Virus record (IMG/VR): IMGVR_UViG_3300026311_000005
Coordinates: 1-38,648 of that record
Reading direction: 5' to 3' (one strand)
Length of the DNA stretch: 38,648 bases
Source: a virus
Shown here: piece by piece, positions 857 through 38,648 of the stretch
How the letters are laid out: each line of letters starts with the position of its first letter
Numbering within the stretch: the first letter of the stretch is position 1
Program-made: the position numbers and the translations under genes
The notes under the pieces: model-generated
Seen by the model: only the letters and a program-made list of their open reading frames with translations
The model's database searches: none
What the model was told of the DNA's origin: nothing

Positions 857-2038
857 TCACGGTCTATATCTGTCGCGCCATTCGATGACATACTCGTCCG
901 TCCCCGCAATGCTCAGTTCCGCCGACTCTCCGGCCGGGACTATCGGGATCTCGGATATGGCGATGTGTCTCCACTGCTCGATTTTCAGGCTCGGTATGGA
1001 GATAGATGTCAGATCGCCGTCGGCGGCAATTCGGATATATGCGTTTTCCATTCCCTCGGCTTGAGGGACATAGATCATCATCTCCCTGCCAGTCGTCCAC
1101 CGCGGGCTCTGCGAATCGATCACGGTCTGCCACGAGGCTTCACCGTCGGTCGAAACGTCGATCGATGCTATGCCCTCCCCTGTCAGAGTGGGCCGGATGG
1201 TCAGCAGCAGACCGCCCTTGCGGATCGGGAAAACTCCGGGGAGATCATATATTGCATATCCGGACGTTGTGATCACAAGTTCCCCGTCGGATACTGATGC
1301 ATTCGATGACGATGACTTGTCGGCCGCGAACTTATCCCCGTCATCGAACATATCCTCATACAGTTGATATAGCTGACCGAATCTGTCCATTGTCAGCTCC
1401 TCATCGGACATGAGCGATGGAGCGACGAGGACGGACGCATCACCGATCGTGATTGTGACATCGGCCCCACCGACGACCGATAGCGAAAACAGGAACGCGT
1501 CCAGCGTCCCGTCATTCTGAATGTACGTAGGCGATGGGAATGGGAATAACATCTCCTCACCATACTCTGCCAGGAGGGCTTGGCCTGCCTCTGACAGCAG
1601 CGGAGCATACCCGAACGTCGGGGCCGCGGCATAGAGCTCCGCAGCCTCGGCCCAGAACTTAGCGGTCTTCCGGACGATCCCCGCCCCCCCGGCCGCTGGC
1701 TCGATCTCGGTATCTCCCACCGAGCCGTGGACGACCGCGAACCGATCAGCCCGGCCGAAATAGAGGCGGTCCGTCTCCTGATCCCCGGCGAGGTCATCGA
1801 TGAGAGCGGTGATCTCGTCCTCATCGCCTATCTGGTCGGCGAGGTCCGGCCGGAATATGAGGCCCGCCACCAGGGTGAGGGGATCGCGGCCCTCCTGCCA
1901 GACGACGGCCCGGTTGCCCCCGATGATGGGTGAGGTCTTCGCCCTGCGGCCCGCGCCTTTGGCCCGCCGGGGCCCCCACTCAACATAGGAGGAGATGTCG
2001 GTATCTCCGATCTGGATTTTTCGCGATATTGAAGTCAT
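857..2038 (-). CDS. Tail-associated protein (393 aa), function unknown
   Basis: ORF track; 4-nt overlap with the upstream tail gene; its stop is followed 9 nt later by the tail fibre ATG, with a GAGG motif spanning the stop. Confidence 0.4.
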   Translation of the reverse strand: MTSISRKIQIGDTDISSYVEWGPRRAKGAGRRAKTSPIIGGNRAVVWQEGRDPLTLVAGLIFRPDLADQIGDEDEITALIDDLAGDQETDRLYFGRADRFAVVHGSVGDTEIEPAAGGAGIVRKTAKFWAEAAELYAAAPTFGYAPLLSEAGQALLAEYGEEMLFPFPSPTYIQNDGTLDAFLFSLSVVGGADVTITIGDASVLVAPSLMSDEELTMDRFGQLYQLYEDMFDDGDKFAADKSSSSNASVSDGELVITTSGYAIYDLPGVFPIRKGGLLLTIRPTLTGEGIASIDVSTDGEASWQTVIDSQSPRWTTGREMMIYVPQAEGMENAYIRIAADGDLTSISIPSLKIEQWRHIAISEIPIVPAGESAELSIAGTDEYVIEWRDRYRP

Positions 2039-4611
2039 GGTTTCGTGATCCCTCTGACTGTGCCAGTTATATCCGAATTTTGCGATATCGCATATCTTCG
2101 AATCATCAACACCGATATCGTTTCGAGATTACCATCCAATCTGCAAAATTGTGATATATCTAAATCGCTAATAATATTCCCATATATTGGCTTCGCTGTA
2201 AGATACGCGCATCGCGCTCCGTTAACGGTGACGATGCAGTCCACCGCCGCATCTGGATTTTCTTGTGAAGTCGTCCCGGACGAAGATAACGAAAACAATA
2301 CCAACCCGGCATCGGTCCCAAAATCATCGGGCGTGAAATTCATCTCAAATTCATATCCTGAAATATATATATGACCACTCGCTGTTCCGATAGTGTTGTG
2401 TCCTGACAACATCAATCCATCTTCCCATGACGTGATGCACGATACCGACGTGGTGATTAATCCGCTGACATCCTCCCAATCTTTCCCCCAATTAGTCGAT
2501 CGGTATAATTCTCCGGCACTAGACGATGCGACCACAAATCCATTGCGGAACGCGTGAAGCTTTTGGATTGTCGTGGATGGGCTGTCATAGACTTCCGTCC
2601 AAGTTGTCCCGTAATCTGTCGATCTAAAAATCTTTCCACCGCGACTAGATCCTGCTAGTATTATACCAGACGTCCACCCTGCCAACGAATATATGAACAA
2701 TTCGGATGAATCGTAGACTTCCGTCCACGTCGCTCCATAATCTGTCGACCTGAAAATCTTTCCACTTGGGTACGTCCCTGCAAATCCGTGCCCCGTGGGG
2801 ATTGCACATGTCCCGAATATATATTGCTCGCTAGTATTATACACTTCGGCCCAAGTTTCTCCGTAATCCGTTGACCGCAAAATACGGCCATTTGCTGATG
2901 TCCCGGCAATTGCGTATCCATTTTCCCATGTAGACATTGCCCATATCTGCGATCCAGATGAATCGTAGACTTCCGTCCACGTCGCTCCATAATCTGTAGA
3001 CCTGAAAATCTTTCCGTTTGGGGAGCTTCCCGCAATTGCGTATCCATTTTCCCATGTAGCTATTGAAGTAATATTATGTTCAGGTGTTACATTTTTAGCT
3101 ACTGCCCAGGTTACCCCTCGATCCGTAGATCGAAAAATCTTCCCGCCCGCGCCTGAGCCACCGTCACCGGTCCCGGCTATTGCAATATCGTCGTTCTGAA
3201 ACACCCCAATTGATGCAATAGTTTTTTCTCCGGTACTATATATGTGTGCGAACATATTTGACTCAGAACTATATGAGGCCTCCCCCACCAACCTGTCACG
3301 ATACGCCTCTATCGCTCCGGTTTCGGATCGTTCCAAAAACGCCGTTAGCAGCGACAGATCTGGCGCTCCGACGACGGCCACCTCCCCTGCGATCGTCTCT
3401 CGAATAGATCGAATCTGAGCCGCGAATTTCTCACCGCCCTCGAGATCCAATTCGATCCAGTCTCCTACATCCATACCGCCTCGATACAGATCGATCTCTA
3501 CCGGCGCGTGTTGATGGATCGCATCGTAAAAGTCATCAGTTGCCTGGTCCAGGTGGCCCCACGGTGGAAGCCTGGCACCGGGGAGCTGGTAGGTAGTCTC
3601 AAGCCACGCCTGACCCGGACACAGCAGCTCGCCACGAGCGTACCGCACGCCCTCTATATTTTCCGCGCCGGCGCCCATCCCGACAACGCAAGAATACGGG
3701 ATATATCGAGGTGGCGAGATCTTCTGTAGACTGAAATCATCGCCGATGTGCAGCGACGCGTGGGGGGCCGACTCCGACCCCCTCGCCTTCGGAGTCGCCG
3801 AAATGTCCAGATAGACGTAATCCTCCTCTCTCCGAAAGACGACGTACTGCCCGGTCTCCCCGACGAGATCCCGGATCAAGCCCCAGATCTCGGTCTCGCC
3901 AACCTCGTACGGCGCTCCGACCTCGGAGTCGGTCGCCACGGTGCCTAGCCGGACGTGATTTTCTGCCCACCCGTCGGCGGCGATCACATCATAGATATCC
4001 CCCGTTCCGGCCCCTCGGACATAGAGGTTATCCCCCGAGATCGCATAGCGATAGGTCCCTCCTGCGATCGAGGATAGGGTGGACTCGGCGAGCTTGTGGC
4101 CGCCGTAATAGATATCGTGACCGGTGACGAGCGGTCCCCATCCCTCCAGAGTTCCCACGCCATCCGAATCCCATGACACGATCCCGGTGTCCTGACCGTC
4201 GCAGATCTTCGACCTGCTGAGCCAGAGGAGGCCCATGCAGTACTGAGTCGCCCCGGCCCCCTGTGGCGGGGCGTCGGAGGAGAAGATGTCGGATAGGGTG
4301 AGCCCGACGCCGCCGGGATAAATGATCTCTGGCGCGTATCGGCACTGGAGAAGGGCTTCGGCGGCGATGCAATCATACCGCCTCTGCCCTCCCACGGCGC
4401 TGTACTCGATAGAGACGACTGAGCCGATGAAGAGCACGTCCCCGGAATCCGAAACGGCCCGGACCCTCGCCCCCATTCGGATATGATCGATCTCCGAAGC
4501 GATGGACAGAGAATCGCCTAGATCGTTCTCCAGGGAGCGGAAGAGTTCCGGGTCGGAACCGTCGATGACGAACTCGGACGACTGTCCAGGATTCTGAAAA
4601 TATAGCATCAT
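2035..4611 (-). CDS. Large tail protein with a predicted Asp-box (BNR) beta-propeller domain, sialidase-like
   Basis: Seven repeats of the Asp-box motif S-x-D-x-G-x-T-W (RSTDYGATWTEV and variants); matching near-identical 60-bp DNA repeats around 2700-3020; N-terminal region paralogous to 4608..6803; start placed at the ATG at 4611 that overlaps the upstream stop (ORF track start 4668). Confidence 0.6.
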   Translation of the reverse strand: MMLYFQNPGQSSEFVIDGSDPELFRSLENDLGDSLSIASEIDHIRMGARVRAVSDSGDVLFIGSVVSIEYSAVGGQRRYDCIAAEALLQCRYAPEIIYPGGVGLTLSDIFSSDAPPQGAGATQYCMGLLWLSRSKICDGQDTGIVSWDSDGVGTLEGWGPLVTGHDIYYGGHKLAESTLSSIAGGTYRYAISGDNLYVRGAGTGDIYDVIAADGWAENHVRLGTVATDSEVGAPYEVGETEIWGLIRDLVGETGQYVVFRREEDYVYLDISATPKARGSESAPHASLHIGDDFSLQKISPPRYIPYSCVVGMGAGAENIEGVRYARGELLCPGQAWLETTYQLPGARLPPWGHLDQATDDFYDAIHQHAPVEIDLYRGGMDVGDWIELDLEGGEKFAAQIRSIRETIAGEVAVVGAPDLSLLTAFLERSETGAIEAYRDRLVGEASYSSESNMFAHIYSTGEKTIASIGVFQNDDIAIAGTGDGGSGAGGKIFRSTDRGVTWAVAKNVTPEHNITSIATWENGYAIAGSSPNGKIFRSTDYGATWTEVYDSSGSQIWAMSTWENGYAIAGTSANGRILRSTDYGETWAEVYNTSEQYIFGTCAIPTGHGFAGTYPSGKIFRSTDYGATWTEVYDSSELFIYSLAGWTSGIILAGSSRGGKIFRSTDYGTTWTEVYDSPSTTIQKLHAFRNGFVVASSSAGELYRSTNWGKDWEDVSGLITTSVSCITSWEDGLMLSGHNTIGTASGHIYISGYEFEMNFTPDDFGTDAGLVLFSLSSSGTTSQENPDAAVDCIVTVNGARCAYLTAKPIYGNIISDLDISQFCRLDGNLETISVLMIRRYAISQNSDITGTVRGITKP

Positions 4612-6803
4612 CGTAACTCCACCTGGAGACGTCTGCATCGTGTCACGCCGTCGCCCCTGCCACTCCAAATCTGGCAGTAGAGGTATATTCCTGCCTGGAG
4701 ATCATCAAGCTCCTGCTGAGTCCATGTTGCGCCGGAATAAGGATTAGTAATCCATTCATCCTCGAAGCGTTGATAGACACCGATAAGAGATCGTTGCGCC
4801 CCCCAATATACCGTACTGTGTGTTTTTATAAACGCTCTCGAATACCCGACATCCATACCACGTTCTAATATAGCATCATGGACAAGAACTACCTTGAAAT
4901 CGAATGATGGCTTAGCTTCGTTGCTGAGGTTCCAAAGGGCCGTGCCGGATGCTTCTGCCCCGCCAATGCGACCAGCGTCCGCCAAGATATAAATATCCCC
5001 TGTCAGCGTTGATGAGATCTTAGATCCGAGCGTTAGTGTCTTTATCGCGCTCTGCCCATATCTCCCGATGCCCCGGACGGTGATCGTGTACCCGAGCGTC
5101 TCCGAAAGGGTCCCCGTGGGGTCGGTGACGGCGATCTCCAGCGTCTCCTCGGTTCCATCGAGCGCGCACCACTCAGTGATGTCCAGCCCCTCGAAGATCG
5201 GATCTTTTCCCCAAGGCTGATGGGGGATGATCGCGATGACCTGGCCTGCTGGATAGGTGGTGTTGGTGATGGTGAGGGTCCACGTGACAGCGAGGTCAGA
5301 CTCGTCCGAGTCTCCGGGTGTCGTAGCCCTGAGATCGACCAGGATCTCGGCAGTGTCCCGGTCACTGGATGCCGTCGGAGTCCAGGATATAGAGCCCGTA
5401 GTCCCCGGACCGATGTTGTCGGTGGCCTCCTGATTCCCGAACGCCTGCCCCGCCCGCATGGCGGCGATTGCAGCCGACGCCTGTTTTTCGAGATACGCAT
5501 TTCTGGGGCTGGCATACTTTCCCCCGAGCCGGATCTGTCGGAGGGGCGACAGATCGCGGGATATCTCCGATATCTGAGCGGTGGCGATCTCCGAAGGCGA
5601 GATCTCTACATCGAGCCAGTCACCGGGCAGGAAGTAGTCGATCGCTGTTTCCAGGGAGATAAAATCCGCCTCGGAGACATCGCCCCATTCTGCATCAGCG
5701 ATATCCTCCAGTCTGCCTTTCGGGGACAGTCTCCCCTCCGAGACGTCTAACGTCTGCTCTATCCAGGGCCCTCTTTTCGAGAGATCCGCCTCTGTGTAAA
5801 TCACCCTAGACACCCCTGCCCCAGCCCCACGACAGATCAAGGCAGTCGGAGGGATATCTCTTGGCGCAGTTCGCTTGAGGCTGATATAATCGCCCGGCCC
5901 GATGGAGAACGCGCCGCCCGACGACGAGCCCCGGACCCACGGATTTATCGACCCGTCTAGGTACGTCAAATCTCCGACGTGCCGAAGTCGAAGATAGATC
6001 CCCATATCGAAAAGAAAATCGTGAATAATCTGCCAATAATTGTCATCGTCGCCGGAGACGTCCAGAGCCGCGAGGAGGTAGTCGCCTGATCTGTCCAGGT
6101 TGCCGAGCCGGAGCCCGGTATCCTTGAAGTTGTCGATGCAAACCGGCCCGAAATCACCGACACCTGCGCCATAGACATAAAGATCGTTATCTCGATAAAT
6201 CCTGTACGTTCCGCCGCTGATATCTCCGAGGGAGTCTACCTCAGTGCAGAGATGGCCGCCTACGTAGACGTCTTTCCCCGCCGTCCGAGGATGTGACCCC
6301 CAGTTGGCCCACTTCCAGACTCCAGCCGTTCGAGAGTCCGCTGTTAGCGGGAAGTAACTATGAGCCATCCAGATTAGGCCTGGCACGTACTGATCCGTTC
6401 CGGCTGATTGGCTGGGAGGATCGGACGACAGGACTTGGGCCAGCGTAAGCGCGGAATAGCCCGAGACGATGGCCGGCGCTCCCCATCGCATCAGGCCCCA
6501 CGGCACCCGGCTCTTCAAAATTTGAGGGATGGATATGCACTTGATTTTCAGGCATCCCTCAGTCTTCCCCGTGGCGGCGTTGTAGAATGTTGCCCCTTCG
6601 CGAGAGGCCGCTGCACCACGATAAATCGTGTGGCCGTTCTCGACCATCTTGAGCCACGACCGATCCCGAACGGGTGCCCGGTACGATACCTTGAACTCCA
6701 GATCCTCCCCCTTGTCGAAGTCTCGGTATTGAGTATGGCGGAGATCCATGATATCGATCTGATGATAGGTCCCAGTAGCGTCGGCGACGTAGACCTCTTG
6801 CAT
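4608..6803 (-). CDS. Large tail protein (731 aa), paralogous in its N-terminal half to 2035..4611
   Basis: ORF track; shared block GGTYR.Y.D..LYV.GAG.GD with the neighbouring gene; immediately downstream of the tape measure gene. Confidence 0.5.
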   Translation of the reverse strand: MQEVYVADATGTYHQIDIMDLRHTQYRDFDKGEDLEFKVSYRAPVRDRSWLKMVENGHTIYRGAAASREGATFYNAATGKTEGCLKIKCISIPQILKSRVPWGLMRWGAPAIVSGYSALTLAQVLSSDPPSQSAGTDQYVPGLIWMAHSYFPLTADSRTAGVWKWANWGSHPRTAGKDVYVGGHLCTEVDSLGDISGGTYRIYRDNDLYVYGAGVGDFGPVCIDNFKDTGLRLGNLDRSGDYLLAALDVSGDDDNYWQIIHDFLFDMGIYLRLRHVGDLTYLDGSINPWVRGSSSGGAFSIGPGDYISLKRTAPRDIPPTALICRGAGAGVSRVIYTEADLSKRGPWIEQTLDVSEGRLSPKGRLEDIADAEWGDVSEADFISLETAIDYFLPGDWLDVEISPSEIATAQISEISRDLSPLRQIRLGGKYASPRNAYLEKQASAAIAAMRAGQAFGNQEATDNIGPGTTGSISWTPTASSDRDTAEILVDLRATTPGDSDESDLAVTWTLTITNTTYPAGQVIAIIPHQPWGKDPIFEGLDITEWCALDGTEETLEIAVTDPTGTLSETLGYTITVRGIGRYGQSAIKTLTLGSKISSTLTGDIYILADAGRIGGAEASGTALWNLSNEAKPSFDFKVVLVHDAILERGMDVGYSRAFIKTHSTVYWGAQRSLIGVYQRFEDEWITNPYSGATWTQQELDDLQAGIYLYCQIWSGRGDGVTRCRRLQVELR

Positions 6804-9800
6804 CTAATGCCCTCCCCTGAGCCTGCCGACGTAAGCATCGCTAATCTCGATCTTCAGCTCTTCGGCCACTTCGCGGGCGATCTCCCTGGCGTCCCCGCCA
6901 CCGTAGACGGTTATCGGGGCGTTCACTGTGACGCCCCCACCCCCTCCCGCCGTAGCCACCGCCTGCTGAATCATGGGAAGAAGATCCCCGAGAGGGGCGA
7001 CCACTTCGGGCGTCCGGGCGTCCCCGACGACCGCCCGGACGGGAGACGAGATGATCCCGCCGGGGGCGAACGAGAGCCAACCACCCGGAGCAAGCGTGCC
7101 GTCGGCATAGTTTCCGCCGCTGGGTCCCCACGTATCCAGGACTCCGGGGTTCATGACCTCCAGCCAAATGGGCTTCGTGGTGGGGGCCATGATCTCTGCC
7201 TCCAGACGATCCAACTCGGTCATCGCGGGGGATATGTCGGCGAGGACGGGGGAGATTTTCTCCGTCTTGATGTCGCCCTCCAACTTTTCCAGCTCGGTAT
7301 TCGCCGCAGCCGGATCGAGTTCCAGGTCGACTTCGACTGCGTACTGGAAGTAATTTTGCGCTTCGTATCCTTCTTTGGCCCCCTGACCGGGCCCCGCCCA
7401 TCCTTCCGTCGGGCCGATGTAAGACCTGGCGAACATGTCCTCCTGGGCTTCCTGCCACGCGCCGAATCCAGACCACCAACCGGGCATAATACTGGTCGTC
7501 GTTTCGGCGGAAGCTTTTTCCAGTCCGGCCTTCCCCGCCTTCGTGAAGTATTTGGCTATGGCGTCGATGGCTTCAGGATCGATCTCTTCCGGGATCACCG
7601 ATAGCAAGAAATCTTTGGCCAGTGATACCGTACTTTTCTCGTAATCCCAGGGGTTCGTGATGATTCGATAGGCTGCTTCTGCATCGGAGCCGAGTTCGCC
7701 GACGATCTGGCTCAGAGAATACAGATCGTCGGCGAACTCGCGGAGTCCCTTCTTTGTTTTTGATCCGTCGTATTCCTCCCAGAAGAGGGCCTCTCGGAGC
7801 GCGGAAGCTTCTGGTGATACTTTTGCCGTAACTTCTGCGATGTAAGGCTCGCCGGCGTCGATATGCTTTTGAAGCTCCGCGTTTATTCCAGTTGTATCTA
7901 TATTATTCGCTATATTGTAAGACCGCTGCTCCAGCATCCCTACAAGACGGCCCCACCAACTGAGGGCGGCCTGGCCCCCAGCCTCCTCGAACGCCTCGGG
8001 ATCGGCTAGCTTGAGATCTGCTAATTGAGTTTCGATATCAGAAGCTTCTGACGCCGTGATCAGCCCGTCCTCGAATGCCGCCCAACCGTCTTCTGCGACG
8101 TCTCCGAGTAGATCGGCCATCTTGTCGCCGAGCCCGCCGACGGCGAACGGCTTTTCGAGGGCCTCGCTAAACGCAGTTTCAAATTCCGCCTGGAGCCGTT
8201 CGGCTTCGGCTTCGAGGTCAAGCTTCAGTTCGGCTTGCGCCCGCATCTCGGCGGCCTCGCCGTGCTTCCCAAGAGCGTCTAACAGAGCAGCTTCGCGCTC
8301 GACGGGATCAATGAGGGCCCAAAGTCCGGGGAGCTGTGTCCGGATAGCGTTCATGGCAGCCTGAGGTGAATCATATGCCAGCCCAGTGAGCGATTTCCCG
8401 TTGATGTGGACCGCCCATTCCAATTGGGCATCGGGAGTATGTATTATTTCAATCGTATCCGACCCGGCGGATACCGTCCCCGTCCTGGAGAATCGCGGGA
8501 CCGTCTTCTCGTGGTAGTCGGCCCACCGCTTCATTTTGTCGTTCCAGGCATTCATGTAGCCGGAGGCAGCGGCGGAGCCAGCCCCCTCGCTGTCGACGTC
8601 TTTTAATTCCTTCTCGATACTGACACCGAGATCTGAAATGATATCGTTGAACGCAGCCAGATACTCATCGGCTGACATGTTGCCAGCGTTGGCGTTCAAG
8701 TCGGCCATCTGGCGGGTAAACTCAGTACCAAACTCTTTTGATCCGGATAAAACGCCATCGAGAGCAGTTATATATTCGTCTGCTGATATTTCTCCAGACT
8801 CAAACATCTCGGTGATCGGGCCGATGACGTATTCAGTAGATTCTCCTAATTGAGCATGGACATCTGAAATTGAGTTGATAGCATCCTGGTATTGAGTCGC
8901 CGATATCTCGCCTTGAGAGAACGCATCTTGGATCGGGCCTGCGATCGAATCAAAATCAGATCCAAGAGAAGTGACGGCGTTGGCAACGTCGTCCATTATG
9001 TTTTTGTACTCTTCCGCCGAAACCGTACCGTCCTCGAATGCTTGGGTGAGAGGTTCAAGAGCCTCGTCAGCCCCGTCACCAAGCTCCTCCGAAACGGTGG
9101 TCATGTCCTCCAGGATGGAGATGTAATCTTCAGCGGAGACCGTGCCGTTCTCAAATCCTTCGGTCAGGGGGCCGATCATGTCGGCGGCGGCGTCTCCGAC
9201 CTGCGAATAAATCTCAGATACGCTTGATAAGGATTTTTTGTACTGATCAGTTGTCAGTTTCCCCGTCGTCGCGAACTCTTGGAGCGAATCCATAAGTCCG
9301 GTAGTCGGACCTTTCATGCCAGCGCTCGATACCTCTTTCAATCCGCTGAGGTATTCTTGAGCGGTGAGCTTCCCAGCATCTCTGGCGGCCTGGACGTCGG
9401 CCATATCCTTCACCCACTCGTCGCCGATCTTAATCTGACCGCCCGCCGATTTTAGACCGTCGCTCAGCGCCCCAGTGACATCTCCAACGAACGAACCGAC
9501 AAGACCTCTGGTTTCAGTTCCGCCAGAGAGGACTTCACCTACCTTATTATCGAGCTTTTCTAGTCCTTCGTATAGTTCATATGCCCCTCCGGTAAGCCAT
9601 TGCCATCCCTGTGTTCCGAGACCGATGAGGGCTTGCGTGATGTCGTTCACGCCTTTCATCATCTGAGTGAGATATGGCAACAAAACGGCACCGATTGAGG
9701 TTGCAGCGACAGATATCTTTCCCTTGAAAATGTCTATCTGAGCATTTAGAGTTTCCTGAGACTTGGCGTAAGCTTCGTTCAGGCTGGAAGCGTTCTCCCA

Positions 9801-25033: not shown

Positions 25034-25567
25034 TAGTCTCCCTCGTAGAGATCGTCGATCTCTTGGACGAAGCTCATCACAACCACCTCGCCAGCATCGG
25101 GCCGATCAGGAGAAGGCCCGGCTCGACCCCCAGCCTTGCCGCCAGGGGCTCCACACGAGCTCTCCAGAAGCTTTCGTCGCCCTGGTCCATCTCCCGCCGC
25201 CCCCGGAGCATCCAGGCCCTCTGAAGGGCCGTAATCTCGTCCTCGGTGACGGGGGGGCGGGAGAAGTCCACCCGGCAGGAGCCGCCTTCGCAGGCGGCGC
25301 CGAAATCCGAGAGGGTGGTCATCTCCTCGCCCCCCTCTTTCGCTCGCCCCTCTCGGTCTGGGGCTCGCCGTATTCGATCGAATGGACCCGGCAGTACCGG
25401 GACCATGCCATCCTCTGCGACCGGCATCCTTCGATGATGCACTTGTTTGCCGTGTCGATCCGGGGCCTCATTTCTTCCATCCCCATTGCGGCCCGGTGTC
25501 CGGGCGCTCCAGCCGTTCGGCGATCTCTCGCAGCTCCCCGTCGATCTTGTCAAATCTGTCCATCTCG

Positions 25568-25819
25568 TCACCTCACAAAATCCATCGCTTCCATCTTCTT
25601 TTGCCAGAGCCAATCGGGGATCTCGATCGTCCCGCCTTCCAGCTTAATCTGGCTTTTTGGGAGCCAATAGCCGATTTTCTTGACGTCCATCCCGTCGGCT
25701 ACATGGACGACCTCCAGCAGCAGCCCCTTCTCGGTCTCGGCTCCGATCCGGTGAGTCGTCGATACCCGGACGCCTTCCAGGTTGATCGACGCCTTCTCAG
25801 TCAGTTGGAATATCACCAT
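25568..25819 (-). CDS. Hypothetical protein (83 aa)
   Basis: ORF track; followed by a micro-ORF with a strong GAGGTGA motif. Confidence 0.3.
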   Translation of the reverse strand: MVIFQLTEKASINLEGVRVSTTHRIGAETEKGLLLEVVHVADGMDVKKIGYWLPKSQIKLEGGTIEIPDWLWQKKMEAMDFVR

Positions 25820-26081
25820 TTAGAGCCTCCGCGAAGATGCGCCAGTTTATGCCGCGCCGCCAGACCACTCCCGTTTGGGAACCGTTCCGGACCTTCTGGA
25901 TTATGCCATCCTCCTTGAGCCGGATGGTATCCCGGCCCCGGGGCGGGTGATTGAGATCCCGCATCCGAAACTCGCCAACGGGCATTTCGAGGACCGCCAA
26001 ATCAAGTCCCCTCTCTTTCAGTACCTCGGCGTGACGCCGGGCCATCGCCGGATTTCTGTATATTCCACCAGGTCGTGACAT
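25797..26081 (-). CDS. Hypothetical protein (94 aa)
   Basis: Start taken as the ATG at 26081 with GGGAG upstream (ORF track start 26123 is TTG). Confidence 0.35.
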   Translation of the reverse strand: MSRPGGIYRNPAMARRHAEVLKERGLDLAVLEMPVGEFRMRDLNHPPRGRDTIRLKEDGIIQKVRNGSQTGVVWRRGINWRIFAEALNGDIPTD

Positions 26082-26129
26082 ATCTCCCTCTCTTTCACAT
26101 ATTTTTAGGCTATAATAATCCAAAACATA

Positions 26130-26326
26130 GTAAGATCTTACTTTTACTTATCCACGCTTGTAAAGCGCGGACATGTAAACATCTTACTTATTCGCTTTTC
26201 TCTCTGTATCTATCCTCCTTCCTCCAACTAACCACCTATCCAAAAACACCCGAAATCACGAGCATTTTGTAGTTAGCTGGAACCCCTTTAGTAAAGGATC
26301 GCTCAAAAGTAAAAGTAAGATCTTAC
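26130..26326. promoter_or_regulatory. AT-rich control region bounded by perfect inverted 18-bp elements, each containing the 12-bp palindrome GTAAGATCTTAC
   Basis: GTAAGATCTTACTTTTAC at 26130-26147 and its exact reverse complement at 26309-26326; degenerate third site near 26175-26188; TATAAT-like and polypyrimidine tracts between them. Confidence 0.5.
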
Positions 26327-26333
26327 AACTTAT

Positions 26334-26813
26334 TCACCAATCTACACCCTCCGATCCTTGCCAAAGTGGAACCTTTGCCCTCGCCAATTCGACGAGATGG
26401 TCCCGATAATCCTGAGTAATTCGAACTTGCTTTCCGTTGCCCCGACCCCGCGCCGATTCGATGATGTACTTATCGGGCTGAGCCGAAAGCGATTTGGCAA
26501 AATGTGTCATGTTCTGGCGACGATTCTTGCCCATATCGAGAAGCTTTCCTGCGTCCTCGAACGATATCGCCCTTGGGAATCGTTCAAGAAGAAGAGAATC
26601 GATTTTCGACAGTCGGCCTTTGGCGATAGCAGAGTTGGAGGGCCGAAGGGTTCCTGTCTCAAGCCGAGATAGCCTTTTCCGGTCTAGCGCTCGTTCCAGC
26701 GCCACCTCTTCCCGGAGAGCATCTATCTCGGCTTGCATTGCCCTTCTCATTTCTTCCATATCCGACTTAAGGCTTTCGATGGCGGCCCGTATAACGTCAT
26801 CAGATTCGCCCAA
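26334..26813 (-). CDS. Hypothetical protein (159 aa), possible regulator
   Basis: ORF track (TTG start); N-terminal coiled-coil-like region. Confidence 0.35.
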   Translation of the reverse strand: MGESDDVIRAAIESLKSDMEEMRRAMQAEIDALREEVALERALDRKRLSRLETGTLRPSNSAIAKGRLSKIDSLLLERFPRAISFEDAGKLLDMGKNRRQNMTHFAKSLSAQPDKYIIESARGRGNGKQVRITQDYRDHLVELARAKVPLWQGSEGVDW

Positions 26814-26826
26814 AACGACCGCCTCT

Positions 26827-26952
26827 TCACGCGCCCCCGTCCCTCATCGCTTCGGCGAGATCCAGCACCCTTTCAAGACAGTCGCCGATGGTATCGCTTG
26901 CATCTCCGAACTTTGCCAGCCGGGCCTTATCTTTAATCCGGACTCGGATCAT
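26827..26952 (-). CDS. Small protein, paralogue 1 (41 aa)
   Basis: Manual translation MIRVRIKDKARLAKFGDASDTIGDCLERVLDLAEAMRDGGA; last 44 nt identical to the paralogue at 27301. Confidence 0.35.
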   Translation of the reverse strand: MIRVRIKDKARLAKFGDASDTIGDCLERVLDLAEAMRDGGA

Positions 26953-27094
26953 AGTCGTCTCCATGCTAGATAGCAACGCGCGTATTGCTTATAAAGATAA
27001 CGGTATCGCGCCATGTGGCAACGCATGTTCCCTGCTATTGCCAATTGCAAGTTCAGGGCGGGGAGTAGTCACTCAGATTCCTCTGCATCCAAAT

Positions 27095-27298
27095 TCATCG
27101 CCGCCTCTTCACGCCCCGCCCGCCCTCGCCGGGTTCACGTACGCCACTCCAGTACTTGTGGCGGTATTCCGTTTCTAGCCTCTCGACTTCGACGAACTTT
27201 GCAAGAGCCCGGCTAGCGACAGCGATATCCTCCCATTCGTCGGCCTCGGCGATAACATGGCACAGAGCCATCACGATTCGTCGGGTGGTGGGTTCCAT
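27095..27298 (-). CDS. Hypothetical acidic protein (about 67 aa)
   Basis: ORF track 27095..27304; ATG at 27298 lies 3 nt after the upstream stop. Confidence 0.3.
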   Translation of the reverse strand: MEPTTRRIVMALCHVIAEADEWEDIAVASRALAKFVEVERLETEYRHKYWSGVREPGEGGRGVKRRR

Positions 27299-27300
27299 CG

Positions 27301-27444
27301 TCACGCGCCCCCGTCCCTCATCGCTTCGGCGAGATCCAGCACCCGCGCCAAACAGTCGGCCATCGAATCGGAAGCGTTCCCGAAGTTGGCGAGCCGGGCG
27401 TGATCGGCCCTATTCACCCGAATGAGTATTTTATCATCTGACAT
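27301..27444 (-). CDS. Small protein, paralogue 2 (47 aa)
   Basis: Manual translation MSDDKILIRVNRADHARLANFGNASDSMADCLARVLDLAEAMRDGGA; TATA-like TTAATA about 25 nt upstream. Confidence 0.35.
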   Translation of the reverse strand: MSDDKILIRVNRADHARLANFGNASDSMADCLARVLDLAEAMRDGGA

Positions 27445-27535
27445 CAAGGATAGTGAGCCCTCAAAGTATTAATATCTTATCCTTCGGTTTATGTCGTAAA
27501 CTACTTATATAACGAATACAACTAAGGGATATGGC

Positions 27536-27672
27536 GTGTCGCGTCGAGTCGAGTCAGGTCCGGTCGTGGCAGTCGCGTCGAGTCAGGTCGGGTCGGGTCG
27601 GGTCGTGGCAGTCGAGTCGCGTCAGGTCATGTCGAGTCGCGTCGAGTCCAGTCGGGTCCGGTCGTGGCAGTC
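27536..27672. repeat. Pentanucleotide array 1: about 27 tandem NNGTC units in three blocks, each ending in GTGGCAGTC
   Basis: Read directly: GTGTC GCGTC GAGTC GAGTC AGGTC CGGTC GTGGCAGTC ...; 5-bp periodicity, six GAGTC units. Confidence 0.8.
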
Positions 27673-29060: not shown

Positions 29061-29170
29061 GATTCAAAAAAGAACGTGCTCTGAATTGTGATCTCACATT
29101 TCGCGCCACATTTATCGCGCCATGACTCAAAAGAATGAGTCACCGCGCATTCGGAAAAGCACGCGTGCAT

Positions 29171-30529
29171 TCATGGCGCGAAGTCCTCCAGCGTCGCCGG
29201 GGGCCTCTCCGCCGCCGCCAGTCTAGCCTCGGCGATCTCGACGTACTCAGGCTCAAGCTCGATCCCGATATATCCGAATCCCTCCTCTTTCGCGGCGACG
29301 AGGGTCGTACCCGATCCGGCGAATGGGTCCAGGACCGTCCCGCCTGGGGGGGTGACGAGCCGGACTAGGTAGCGCATCAGCTTGAGGGGCTTGACCGTGG
29401 GGTGGTGGTTTTGGCGATGGGTTTTGCCTCGGAGATATGGGTTGTCAATCGGGGTGTTTCGTCCATCGTCTGTGATCCGATCTGGCATCCCCTCCAGCCC
29501 CCGGTTCCGTTCGGCCCGGCTCGCCTTCGCTACATATACGATCGGGTCCGGGTCTATCTGGAGGAAGAAGCGGGCGGCGGTGCCTTCTCTATCATGCCAT
29601 GTATGTTGCCCCCCCTTCAACCCGAACATACCACCCGGATCAGCTGATACTTTACCGCGGCCTTCTACAGAACCGCCGCTCTTCAGATGCCCCGATTGCT
29701 CCGCTATGAGCCGTACCGCACATCCTTCGACGCAGTCCTCCCCTCGCCGAACGCACCCCGGCGCGTGGCCGAGGATGAGGTTCGCAGGCCAGCGGCCAGA
29801 AGGGTTCTGGACGAACTCCGACCGATTCGTGTCTTTATATCCGCTTGGATATGTTCTGTTTTTTTGAACATGCCGGCCAGACGAAAGGATATCTCCCGTC
29901 CCGATCCGGCACCCGTCCACATTCACCGCGCCGCAACCCCACCGGAGGACGTTCGCCGCAACCGTCTTCTCTGATAACGGTTTGCGAGCCATCACGATCG
30001 GTTCATGGGCGGGCTTAAGAGCGGTCCCCCACCCGTCCCATTGGCGGGCGGCATCGGTGGCGGGGGCGGTGATGTCGACAGTTTTGCGGCTACCATCCGC
30101 TGGCAATGCGGGACCGTTTGCATATTGACTACCTCTGCCACCTGTTGCATTATTCCCCCAAACTTCTGATTGCCCTATCACGTCCCGCTCGGCCCCAGCC
30201 GCCCGGTCGATCGCCTTCGACACGTCCAGACTTTTCGGGAATCCTGATCCATATACCCAAGAGATACAGTCCCTGATCTCGAGTCCCGCGTCCTCGATCG
30301 CGCAAGCCAGCCGATGATAGGTCCGAGTCCCTCCGAACGCCAGCAGATAGCCGCCGGGCTTCAGGACGCGCCACGCCTGCCTCCAGACCTCCTGATCGTA
30401 GGCTATCCCTGACCCATCCCATTTCTTTCCCATGAACCCCAGCTCATAAGGCGGATCACAGACGATCGCGTCGATAGAGTTCTCCTCCATTTCGGCCATC
30501 CGTTCACGGCAATCTCCCTGTAATATCAT
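29171..30529 (-). CDS. DNA methyltransferase, beta-class amino-methyltransferase (N6-adenine or N4-cytosine), orphan
   Basis: Motif IV IVCDPPYE near the N-terminus and motif I VLDPFAGSGTT near the C-terminus; Cys-rich middle region; no adjacent restriction endonuclease. Confidence 0.85.
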   Translation of the reverse strand: MILQGDCRERMAEMEENSIDAIVCDPPYELGFMGKKWDGSGIAYDQEVWRQAWRVLKPGGYLLAFGGTRTYHRLACAIEDAGLEIRDCISWVYGSGFPKSLDVSKAIDRAAGAERDVIGQSEVWGNNATGGRGSQYANGPALPADGSRKTVDITAPATDAARQWDGWGTALKPAHEPIVMARKPLSEKTVAANVLRWGCGAVNVDGCRIGTGDILSSGRHVQKNRTYPSGYKDTNRSEFVQNPSGRWPANLILGHAPGCVRRGEDCVEGCAVRLIAEQSGHLKSGGSVEGRGKVSADPGGMFGLKGGQHTWHDREGTAARFFLQIDPDPIVYVAKASRAERNRGLEGMPDRITDDGRNTPIDNPYLRGKTHRQNHHPTVKPLKLMRYLVRLVTPPGGTVLDPFAGSGTTLVAAKEEGFGYIGIELEPEYVEIAEARLAAAERPPATLEDFAP

Positions 30530-35888: not shown

Positions 35889-35987
35889 ATGGGCCGGGTT
35901 ACGATCCCCGCCAACATCCGCAAAAGGTTTGGGATAGAGAACGGGGACGAGGCAGTTCTAGTAGTTCTAAAGAAGGTGGAGAGATGA
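35889..35987 (+). CDS. AbrB/MazE-type (swapped-hairpin) small DNA-binding protein (32 aa)
   Basis: Manual translation MGRVTIPANIRKRFGIENGDEAVLVVLKKVER; stop overlaps the next ATG (ATGA). Confidence 0.4.
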   Translation: MGRVTIPANIRKRFGIENGDEAVLVVLKKVER

Positions 35988-36838
35988 CCATAGAAGAGAC
36001 CATAAAACAATTCATCGAAGACGTAAACGCCGAGTTCGGCTCGGACCTCGCCATAGACAGCCAGGGCGGGGATGGGGAGATATCGATCAACTGGCCCGGA
36101 CACGGCCACATCTACGTAGACGCCAAAACCGGCGAGATCCTGGGGAAGACGAAGCTCCAGGGGGGACTGGTAGACAAGCTCCGGGGCGCTCTGGGGGGCA
36201 ACGTCCCCGCCGTTCCGGGGCGAGGCGGCCAGATCCGACCCGCCAGCAAAGCCGCTCAATCCCTCCGAGAAATCCAGGACGAGGAGGCCGTCGCCTTCGT
36301 CGTCGATAGAAAATCAGGGAAGAAGGCCCCCACCGCCGCCCTCATCTCCAGAGCGGCCAACGCCGAGGGCCTGAGCTTCGAAGTGCTGGACTACGACCAC
36401 CGGCGCGACTTCGTGAAGGTGGCGATCCGGGCGACGTCCCCGGAAGGCCGGTATAATGACGCCGTGGTATCGGTTTATAAAGATGAATACCTCGCTCCCT
36501 ACGCCTGGGAGCTGGTGCAAAACAACTGTCCGTCGGCGGTAGAGGCGGTTGACCCGGAGACGGGGATGCCGATATTCCGGGAGGGGGCAACTATCCGAGT
36601 CCCGAAGAGCCGGGATGGTTCCAGGCTCTATGAGGAGGTTCCGGTCATCCTGTGGCTCGCCCAGAAGCTCGCCGCCCGGTGGCTATTCGCGCCCCGGAGC
36701 TGCGAGACGAAAGCCAAAGCCAGAGCCGCTAAGCAACTTCTGAATACTGACGCTGCCCCAACGAGCTGGCAGGAGCCCGAAGAGATCGCCGACGAGGAGA
36801 TGGAGTCATCACTGGTAGAGGGCGAGGTGGTGAGCTGA
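35984..36838 (+). CDS. Hypothetical protein (284 aa), translationally coupled to the AbrB-like gene
   Basis: ORF track; no recognisable motif. Confidence 0.45.
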   Translation: MTIEETIKQFIEDVNAEFGSDLAIDSQGGDGEISINWPGHGHIYVDAKTGEILGKTKLQGGLVDKLRGALGGNVPAVPGRGGQIRPASKAAQSLREIQDEEAVAFVVDRKSGKKAPTAALISRAANAEGLSFEVLDYDHRRDFVKVAIRATSPEGRYNDAVVSVYKDEYLAPYAWELVQNNCPSAVEAVDPETGMPIFREGATIRVPKSRDGSRLYEEVPVILWLAQKLAARWLFAPRSCETKAKARAAKQLLNTDAAPTSWQEPEEIADEEMESSLVEGEVVS

Positions 36839-37721: not shown

Positions 37722-38648
37722 CTACATCACCCTCGTCGGTACCCTGACCTCGAACGACTCCACGAGGAAGTCGCTAGTGAGATTATTCGAGCTGGGCGCT
37801 ATCCTCGATATCGCCAGCCTCACCCTTTGACCGGCAGACCAACCAAGGGAGCTGACGGTCGCCGTCCAGGTGTAGATGACGGGCCGGTTCTGGGTGGCGT
37901 TGCAGGCTAGGTCGCCTGAGTCGCTGGCGGTCGAGTAAGCAGTATCGACAGACCCTGCGCCGCTCGACAGGACCAACTGCTTCACCCTGAACTTAACGTT
38001 CTTGCCGGCGGCCGCCGTCTTGGCCCACCCCACGAGGGCGAACGTTATGGTTCCCCCAGTGTTGATGTCGGCCGGCACCACGAAGGCCGGCGCCTGGGCC
38101 GTCTCCTCGGTAGTGTCATCGAATGCAAGCGTAACCACCGCCTGGTTCGTCCCATCCAATAGGTATTCCTCGGGCGAGTTGGCGGCGTCAAGGTTGAATG
38201 CGGTGGGCGGCAGCACGAGGATCCTCGTGCTGTAGAGATACGTCCAGGCCGGATCGTCTGCACCCATCGACAGAACGGAGTACTGGGAGCCTTTGGCGAG
38301 CCTGGCGGCGTCACCGGATCCCCGGTATAGCAGGTCTCCCCGGGTCGTGAGGATCTGGTTCAGAAGGGTCGCCAGGGTGGCCCAGGCCGGATCGTCTGCA
38401 CCCATCGACAGAACGGAGTACTGGGAGCCTTTGGCGAGCCTGGCAGAAGTTCCGTCCGAGCGGTATAAGAGATCTCCCCTTGTGGTCAGGATCGTATCTA
38501 GTATCGCCGCCGGAGTCGAAACCCCTCCGAACAGAGGCCGGTCGTCCCGGTAAATGTAGCTGTTGGAGCCGTCGTCGGCGTCATCGATATGAACCGATCC
38601 CACCCGATGATAGACCAGGCAGATCGGGACGGTATTCGCGACGAGAGC
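37722..38648 (-). CDS. Tail fibre protein, C-terminal portion (38522-38648 duplicates 1-127); contains a tandem 46-aa repeat
   Basis: ORF track 37722..38603 with no stop upstream to the window end; internal repeat ILTTRGDLLYR...ARLAKGSQYSVLSMGADDPAW occurs twice; last large gene of the tail cluster. Confidence 0.6.
   Translation of the reverse strand, partial: ALVANTVPICLVYHRVGSVHIDDADDGSNSYIYRDDRPLFGGVSTPAAILDTILTTRGDLLYRSDGTSARLAKGSQYSVLSMGADDPAWATLATLLNQILTTRGDLLYRGSGDAARLAKGSQYSVLSMGADDPAWTYLYSTRILVLPPTAFNLDAANSPEEYLLDGTNQAVVTLAFDDTTEETAQAPAFVVPADINTGGTITFALVGWAKTAAAGKNVKFRVKQLVLSSGAGSVDTAYSTASDSGDLACNATQNRPVIYTWTATVSSLGWSAGQRVRLAISRIAPSSNNLTSDFLVESFEVRVPTRVM
38522..38648. repeat. Terminal direct repeat, copy 2 (identical to 1-127)
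   Basis: Same comparison as above. Confidence 0.9.

Follow-up and report, generated by a model that had tools for sequence, protein, structure and literature searches.

The virus genome IMGVR_UViG_3300026311_000005 (positions 1–38,648 of the IMG/VR record; this whole 38,648 nucleotide (nt) stretch is termed the window) contains two small open reading frames (ORFs) on its minus strand that end with an identical nt sequence. The shared sequence, termed here the block, is GGGTGCTGGATCTCGCCGAAGCGATGAGGGACGGGGGCGCGTGA when read in the minus-strand sense. It is found at exactly two locations in the window, positions 26827–26870 (copy 1) and 27301–27344 (copy 2), and makes up the last 14 codons of each ORF, RVLDLAEAMRDGGA, together with the stop codon TGA. 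The copies are direct repeats 474 bp apart. No match to the 44-mer with three or fewer mismatches was found in 100 shuffles.

The gene that contains copy 2 (positions 27301–27444, minus strand) encodes a 47 amino acid (aa) predicted regulator with a ribbon-helix-helix (RHH) fold, MSDDKILIRVNRADHARLANFGNASDSMADCLARVLDLAEAMRDGGA; the protein is 100% identical to P0001. The copy 1 gene encodes a related predicted RHH regulator, METTMIRVRIKDKARLAKFGDASDTIGDCLERVLDLAEAMRDGGA. Chain lengths of 41 and 47 aa were given in the initial annotation of these loci. The length of 47 aa stands, but for copy 1 a chain of 45 aa that starts with the ATG at position 26964 (METTMIRV...; positions 26827–26964, minus strand) is more likely than one of 41 aa that starts at position 26952. 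This is because other alleles begin with MEKPLIRV... and because of the distance between the TATA-like box and the ATG. A TTG at position 26976 is a further alternative start.

In a codon-anchored alignment of the two genes, 53 of the 94 nt upstream of the block are identical (56%), as compared with 44 of 44 within it (Fisher p = 4e-9). The chance of a perfect 44-nt run, given the overall identity, is about 2e-5. Identity ends 1 nt past the TGA on the 3′ side and, on the 5′ side, at the opening base of the Arg codon located before Val. The alignment confirms that the two related genes have perfectly identical ends and a diverged remainder, both of which had been noted initially, and the break between these parts is real and sharp. 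Conservation does not run uniformly through both genes, as it would after a simple recent duplication; identity stops at the block edge.

A different gene follows each copy, as had also been stated. Copy 1 is followed by an ORF of 159 aa (positions 26334–26813, minus strand) that has a TTG start with AGAGG 9 nt upstream. This ORF displays only weak, below-cutoff matches to coiled-coil families, and these are confined to residues 8–49. Copy 2 is followed by an ORF at positions 27095–27298 (minus strand) of 67 aa if translated from the ATG at position 27298, or 69 aa if translated from a GTG that overlaps the TGA at position 27304. The junction between the copy 2 gene and this ORF reads TGA-C-GATG. 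The end of the 67/69-aa gene (positions 27101–27127, minus strand) carries a degenerate copy of the 3′ end of the block plus AGAGGCGG, which is identical to positions 26819–26845 at 23 of 27 nt.

The block was compared in approximately 35 related metagenomic contigs (designated L plus a number). The initial annotation had proposed a search for the 44-mer in related genomes, and the exact sequence is indeed present in five IMG/VR contigs and in the nearest GenBank relative, BK063672.1 (Caudoviricetes sp. vir515). A 23-nt core of the block is found in 25 metagenome contigs, 23 of which are relatives. Matches in L019 and L023 (23-mer core), L035–L037 (17-mer) and L042 were discarded as chance matches in unrelated GC-rich DNA. 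The 44-mer is the sole constant piece across the approximately 35 contigs. The part of the gene upstream of the block, by comparison, falls into at least four deeply diverged allele classes, with N-terminal sequences MEKPLIRVSEENKKRLASFGDAS... (class A), METTMIRVRIKDKARLAKFGDAS... (class B, window copy 1), MSDDKILIRVNRADHARLANFGNAS... (class C, window copy 2) and MEDKIVIKVNRSDHARLAAFGDAR... (class D). Near-identical, single-copy counterparts of the whole gene are present in L005, L032 and L034 for class B and in L011 and L024 for class C. There are also intragenic chimeras among the alleles, e.g. in L009 and L020.

Downstream of the stop codon, at least eight unrelated genes are found, and these are mostly of replication modules. 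One of them codes for a 197-aa protein that weakly matches HSDR_N (type I restriction enzyme R, N-terminal) and precedes a gene annotated as a primase. Another codes for a 170-aa protein without any family match and precedes a 782-aa ORF, and the gene for a NucS-like protein precedes a 942-aa ORF. Further genes encode a 74-aa protein, a Dam methylase, a prim-pol, and the window's own 67/69-aa and 159-aa proteins. With the downstream types numbered from 1 to 8, class A alleles are found with types 1, 2, 3, 4 and 7, class B with types 1, 2, 5, 6 and 8, class C with types 4 and 6, and class D with type 5. Thus A1, A2, B1 and B2 all exist, as do the pairs A4/C4, B6/C6 and B5/D5. The upstream and downstream parts have therefore been re-assorted many times.

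The divergence of the alleles ends at the block. Between classes, the synonymous difference is 0.66–0.85 upstream of the block and approximately 0.06–0.17 within it, and the value within the block is the same as that found within classes. The raw differences between classes are 39–46 of 93 nt upstream and 0.5–1.7 of 44 nt in the block. Pairwise similarities between contigs break at both edges of the block, i.e. at 26870 and 27344 on one side and at 26827 and 27301 on the other. The window and L002 are 99% identical over positions 25559–26870 (1312 nt); the similarity breaks at 26870, where L002 continues with another allele. The similarity to L005 is 93% over positions 27029–26827 and breaks at 26827, where another downstream gene follows. 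L024 matches the window at 93.9% from position 29200 to position 27290, beyond copy 2 of the block, and then switches. The variable downstream module is bounded on its left-hand side by copy 1 of the block. Its far, right-hand boundary is the start codon, at position 25819, of an 83-aa gene (positions 25568–25819, minus strand) that is 84%–98% conserved in most of the related contigs.

The other common breakpoint lies at positions 29100–29200, where most of the related contigs retain a conserved stretch of about 35–100 nt at the 3′ end of a methyltransferase gene. The region from there to the small gene is variable. It contains two plus-strand genes in the window and TnpB elements, winged helix-turn-helix genes or nothing elsewhere. 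In L015, L029 and L031 the first 31 codons of a DNA methyltransferase gene (..VVTSPPYFGL) are fused in frame to the last 24 codons of a class A allele. This fusion (P0009) represents a deletion joint inside the small gene, and the block is still retained.

In this mosaic archaeal virus the block is probably a short conserved boundary sequence, where recombination re-assorts regulator alleles with downstream modules. According to this interpretation, the two small genes would be allelic versions, B and C, of one family of 45–47 aa RHH proteins with predicted DNA binding. The promoter and approximately the first 31 codons represent several old, deeply diverged alleles, and the last 14 codons plus stop are the same 44 nt everywhere. 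A swappable module, mostly of replication genes, begins directly after the stop codon. The 44 nt would then be the only homology common to otherwise different left and right modules, and recombination at or next to it may have repeatedly joined regulator alleles to new downstream modules. Judging from the breakpoint positions, the exchange may be mediated by homologous recombination within the block.

A second explanation for the two identical gene ends is an old tandem duplication in situ, followed by divergence, with gene conversion within the genome keeping the 3′ ends identical. The direct repeat arrangement, 474 bp apart in one genome, makes this mechanistically possible, and the block is 100% identical. 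However, each copy has its near-identical single-copy counterpart in other contigs, and classes A and D, which are not present in this genome, carry the same block; conversion between the window copies is thus not needed. In addition, L011 displays the arrangement without copy 1. Duplication with conversion is therefore quite improbable. The initial annotation had suggested a recent gene conversion. This was correct in spirit but not in scale, as the block is identical across all allele classes and in at least eight downstream contexts.

In L011 a class C gene is followed by the 69-aa gene and this immediately by the 159-aa gene, with no second cassette. Relative to L011, the window has an additional cassette of about 290 bp that consists of a solitary 37-nt repeat, a promoter and the class B gene. 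The cassette lies between the 67/69-aa and 159-aa genes and is flanked by the imperfect direct repeats at positions 27101–27127 and 26819–26845. L020 and L028 also display two RHH-headed units in tandem. Given the L011 arrangement without the cassette and the tandem RHH units in L020 and L028, the window pair is better read as two alleles joined by module shuffling than as an in situ duplication kept partly identical by conversion.

The tandem pair could also be an artifact of metagenome assembly, in which two co-occurring strains were threaded through the shared 44-mer. The block is common to many co-occurring strains. Two independent Logan contigs, L038 at its start and L039 at its end, terminate inside or right at the 44-mer, which is consistent with the block being a branch point in the assembly graph shared by such strains. 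A mis-join at a shared repeat, however, exchanges flanking sequences; it does not give rise to tandem copies that are separated by unique sequence. The contig also closes on itself with a 127-nt overlap, and L020 and L028 show tandem units independently. Mis-assembly is thus highly improbable here, and the observation on the block holds either way. More generally, such blocks may break or mis-join assemblies of co-occurring strains, which is a caution for metagenomics.

Several observations weigh against recombination at a boundary sequence as the full account. Most of the metagenome contigs were retrieved by an exact 23-mer of the block, and its invariance is partly a matter of ascertainment; only eight IMG/VR contigs, together with L039 and L040, are unbiased with respect to the block sequence. 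The gene in L039 is highly divergent, a far more distant allele that differs in the 5′ part of the block, yet the final 27 nt match exactly. The final 18 nt of the block also terminate a canonical but unrelated RHH gene in L020 and L028. The 3′ part of the block could thus have some nucleotide-level function beyond recombination. The junction between the 67/69-aa gene and the solitary repeat (positions 27052–27076) is seen in the window only and has no second supporting contig, a point that also speaks for mis-assembly. Lastly, no recombinase is firmly identified in the window. A RecT-like protein is annotated in vir515, and a window ORF at positions 35984–36838 is 37.5% identical to it over 120 aa, but this ORF has no Pfam or PHROG match. 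RecT-like annealing proteins can use homologies of about 40–50 bp, as in lambda Red/RecT recombineering.

The exact 3′ ends in L039 and in the RHH gene of L020 and L028 favor a further possibility, that the 44 nt or their 3′ half are a nucleotide-level functional element under purifying selection, with recombination secondary. Such an element could be a signal for ribosome binding and termination-reinitiation, or a site that is bound by a protein or an RNA. In five of the eight downstream genes the start codon has the same spacing to the stop, TGA-N-GATG, and GGGGG is located 9 nt ahead of the ATG; the GTG start overlaps the TGA stop. Because of this spacing and overlap, and of the 18 nt in common with the RHH gene in L020 and L028, we infer with modest confidence that the last 15 or so nt of the block (GGGGGCGCGTGA) double as a ribosome-binding site and stop-start coupling signal for the following gene. 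A ribosome-binding site explains about 15 nt, however, and not 44. In two of the downstream gene types, the gene comes with a GGAGG- or GAGG-type site of its own, further downstream. Nor does the motif mark gene junctions in general, as TGA-N-GATG after GGGGG is found only at this block in the window.

The block sequences in the relatives also bear on this possibility. Scans that are not biased toward the block, one with an amino-acid-degenerate C-terminal pattern and one with an N-terminal motif, both gave the same eight IMG/VR contigs. The block is exact in five of these, differs by a single synonymous change in L032 and in L034, and differs by four synonymous changes in L033. In L040 there are also four changes in the block, all of them synonymous. 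In both L033 and L040 three synonymous changes (AGA, GGY, GGG) fall within the last 22 nt; L034 has one there. Folding of the block RNA gave z-scores of +0.44, −0.36 and +1.41, no better than shuffled sequences, and Rfam showed no match to the block. The nucleotides are therefore free to change synonymously, and the strict nucleotide-level constraint that had been proposed initially is not supported. A nucleotide element as the primary cause of the identity is unlikely.

Protein-level constraint does not provide a full account by itself. The Cys and Leu codons just upstream of the block vary synonymously, and the 14 codons of the block show no such variation across classes. The identity of the block across alleles, as judged from these comparisons, is best explained by recent shared ancestry, spread by recombination, in combination with purifying selection on the peptide. 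Two other explanations were rejected. Dual coding does not fit, as the frame in which plus-strand ORFs run through the block differs between the two copies; the −1 frame of the block has no start codon inside it except for the terminal GTG. An attP or provirus origin was set aside because neither the 44-mer nor the amino-acid-degenerate pattern has a match in one genome for each of 185,579 species, although the true host may be absent from this set. No integrase was found among the ORFs scanned, in a scan that was not exhaustive.

Short conserved boundary sequences at the mosaic junctions of phages are already known and the concept has been discussed (PMC3029335). The idea of boundary or "linker" sequences comes from the Susskind-Botstein modular theory, and such sequences were reported for lambdoid phages (PMC3029335). 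In the mycobacteriophage Island3, a case of about 50 bp lies between genes 67 and 68, and the adjacent genes share their last 18 codons (PMC3029335). The block is similar in that a few tens of bp at a gene boundary are conserved between unrelated flanking modules, and in that recombinant combinations are present in related genomes; the flanks are non-homologous on both sides and module combinations are re-assorted. As in Island3, neighboring genes share C-terminal codons, about 14–18 of them, at the nucleotide level. The window case differs in several ways. It is in tailed viruses of methanogenic archaea, and the block is inside the coding region, as the constant C-terminus of a regulator, and not between genes. 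It is also unusually rich, with at least four alleles and at least eight downstream modules at a single block. This is a well documented case within a previously unclassified RHH regulator family. If the interpretation is correct, it is among the cleanest sequence-level illustrations of viral mosaics forming at a short shared sequence, and it concerns a host group whose tailed viruses have been little studied.

The fold assigned to the small proteins is based on a confident AlphaFold2 model (predicted local distance difference test score of 92.7) that was built as a monomer from an alignment of 23 relatives. An earlier model from a four-sequence alignment was mediocre and a Foldseek search with it was uninformative. 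The model displays an extended N-terminus, a helix at residues 10–17, a loop, a second helix at residues 26–41 and a floppy tail. Since it shows an extended N-terminus and two helices, the predicted fold is RHH, i.e. β-strand, helix, helix in about 45 residues. In RHH proteins the β-ribbon is the DNA-reading part. The variable upstream part of the gene, approximately the first 31 codons, codes for the β-ribbon and helix 1, and the block codes for the second half of helix 2 and the tail. With a variable DNA-reading half and a constant half, operator specificity and immunity types between viruses become directly testable.

A profile search of 1.84 billion representative sequences yielded 23 relatives that share the pattern xIRVxxxxxxRLxxFGxAxDSxxDxLxRVLDxAE and vary in the tail after it. 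The tail AMRDGGA is specific to this virus group. Neither window protein has a match at E ≤ 1 in Pfam or PHROG, and no curated RHH family was reached; current protein-family libraries thus do not recognize this small RHH family. A PDB sequence search with the window proteins gave nothing significant, and the best profile match in the PDB, the N-terminus of the MazE7 antitoxin, is sub-threshold (E = 0.019). VAPB_antitox gives a weak match to two distant relatives only. Pfam DUF7557 (PF24434), a family of small archaeal proteins, scores 25.0 bits with the distant relative P0019, at the gathering cut-off of 25 bits, and 24.3 bits with P0022. The likeness is limited to these distant relatives, as the window proteins do not reach the cut-off and give no match.

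The candidate function of the small proteins is DNA binding with autoregulation. In this predicted function they resemble the small RHH regulators of archaeal viruses, e.g. SvtR of SIRV1 (PDB 2kel). There is a likeness to the Sulfolobus plasmid pRN1 as well, where the gene for ORF56/CopG is located just upstream of that for the prim-pol replicase ORF904 and represses it. In several relatives of the window the small gene is directly upstream of primase or prim-pol genes. Unlike the archaeal RHH regulators, however, the window proteins match no Pfam RHH family, and in contrast to pRN1 the window's own downstream genes are not recognizable replicases. A type II toxin-antitoxin system with an RHH antitoxin was considered and rejected. 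The downstream genes weighed as toxins (Dam methylase, prim-pol, NucS-like proteins and unknowns) vary between genomes and none matches a toxin family.

Archaeal promoter rules were applied to the region because the nearest relative, vir515, has Methanosarcinales as its host, and each allele, with its own class-specific inverted repeat, appears to be behind its own archaeal TATA promoter and at the head of a leftward early transcription unit. Upstream of copy 1, a TATA-like box, CTTTATAAGC, is found at positions 26987–26996 (minus strand), or 26989–26994 when delimited more narrowly, 24 nt upstream of the ATG, and is conserved in the class B contigs. The palindrome AGCAATACGCGCGTTGCT (positions 26972–26989) is located between the TATA and the ATG and is specific to class B; in L020 it is a perfect 18-bp palindrome. 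The class C promoter region (positions 27446–27484) displays the inverted repeat AAGGATA/TATCCTT (positions 27446–27452 and 27478–27484) around the TATA-like sequence TATTAATA, which is at positions 27467–27474 and 22 nt upstream of the ATG at 27444. This region is conserved in L011 and L024. As the TATA-like boxes are 22–24 nt upstream of the ATGs, both small-gene transcripts are probably leaderless. The class-specific inverted repeats are suggestive of operators for the small proteins, and that from class B is a candidate operator.

In the divergent intergenic region upstream of copy 2, positions 27538–27658 consist of about 24 tandem pentamers, NNGAC/GTCNN, punctuated by GACTGCCACGAC (Tandem Repeats Finder period 5, also 10 and 39). 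The pentamer array is found only upstream of class C and D alleles (L011, L014 and L024) and may represent a binding array or a replication origin.

The solitary repeat in the additional cassette, CTTGCAATTGGCAATAGCAGGGAACATGCGTTGCCAC (36/37 nt, positions 27015–27051, minus strand), resembles a CRISPR (clustered regularly interspaced short palindromic repeats) repeat. Arrays of the same repeat are found in L002 (positions 9058–9169), L013 and L021, with two to four exact repeats and unique spacers of 37–42 nt. They lie at least 126 nt downstream of a gene for a 411-aa TnpB/Cas12f-like protein (positions 9307–10542 in L002) that displays HTH_OrfB_IS605, OrfB_IS605 and Cas12f1-like TNB domains. 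The L013 array has one more spacer than that of L021, at the gene-proximal end. The arrays of both L013 and L021 end with a 36-nt repeat that runs directly into the last 39 nt of the block (...GTTGCCAC|CTGGATCTC...GCGTGA). A second, distinct TnpB, with 38% identity to that of L002, adjoins the small gene in L016 and L032. Because different TnpBs adjoin the small gene in different contigs, the region upstream of the regulator appears from these arrangements to be a repeated landing site for TnpB elements.

These fusions bring up another possible role for the block, as the target or guide-adjacent site of a TnpB/Cas12f-like RNA-guided nuclease, whose breaks would turn it into a hot spot of recombination or into a weapon against competitors. 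The 39 nt fused to the last repeat match the spacer length of 37–42 nt (44 = 5 + 39), the neighboring 411-aa ORF has the nuclease-related domains given above, and the gene-proximal spacer difference between L013 and L021 fits as well. If true, guided double-strand breaks would drive cassette exchange at the block junction, or array-bearing viruses could attack competitors at the one sequence common to all. However, in L013 and L021 the repeat is on one side of the block only and none comes after it; the block is therefore an array flank and not a spacer. No block-containing array was found among the 23-mer matches. No protospacers for the array spacers were found in the related loci, GenBank phages or IMG/VR, so that neither a protospacer-adjacent motif nor a target-adjacent motif can be defined. 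No TnpB homologue is present in the window. The cassette has its left edge at the common breakpoint near position 29100, and not within the small gene. Being a target would also favor escape mutations, not conservation. A role of the block in guided cleavage is thus very improbable.

Virus-borne mini-CRISPR arrays are reportedly used in conflicts between viruses, as described by Medvedeva and colleagues in 2019. The arrays described here are similar to those of archaeal viruses, in that they are short, have exact repeats and one to three unique spacers, and differ between close relatives. They differ in that the array adjoins a TnpB/Cas12f-like gene and no spacer targets were found, and in that the window has one solitary repeat.

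The window displays a suffix of 127 nt (positions 38522–38648) that is identical to its prefix (positions 1–127). The genome, about 38.5 kb in length, is therefore complete and either circular or terminally redundant. Its encoded proteins include a large terminase, DNA methyltransferases and tail-like proteins. The relative vir515, from a bioreactor source, is assigned to Methanosarcinales, and the window is probably also a tailed virus of this host group.

The first 13 or so codons of the 159-aa gene (MGESDDVIRAAIE, positions 26775–26813) show about 80% nt identity to the start of a 711-aa ORF in L030. In L020, a remnant of the start of the 159-aa gene is fused to the CRISPR-like repeat. The start of this gene thus looks like a second short shared gene-boundary sequence.

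An AT-rich gap is present between a 108-aa gene and the 159-aa gene at positions 26125–26328, with a local GC content of 0.49 as compared with approximately 0.58 overall. It contains a perfect 20-nt inverted repeat (positions 26130–26149 and 26307–26326) and three direct repeats of about 19 nt, and is a candidate origin or regulatory region. Positions 2001–3000, within an 877-aa ORF (positions 2035–4668), have a GC content of 0.46, as compared with about 0.58 elsewhere, and may represent a recently acquired tail-fibre or host-range segment.

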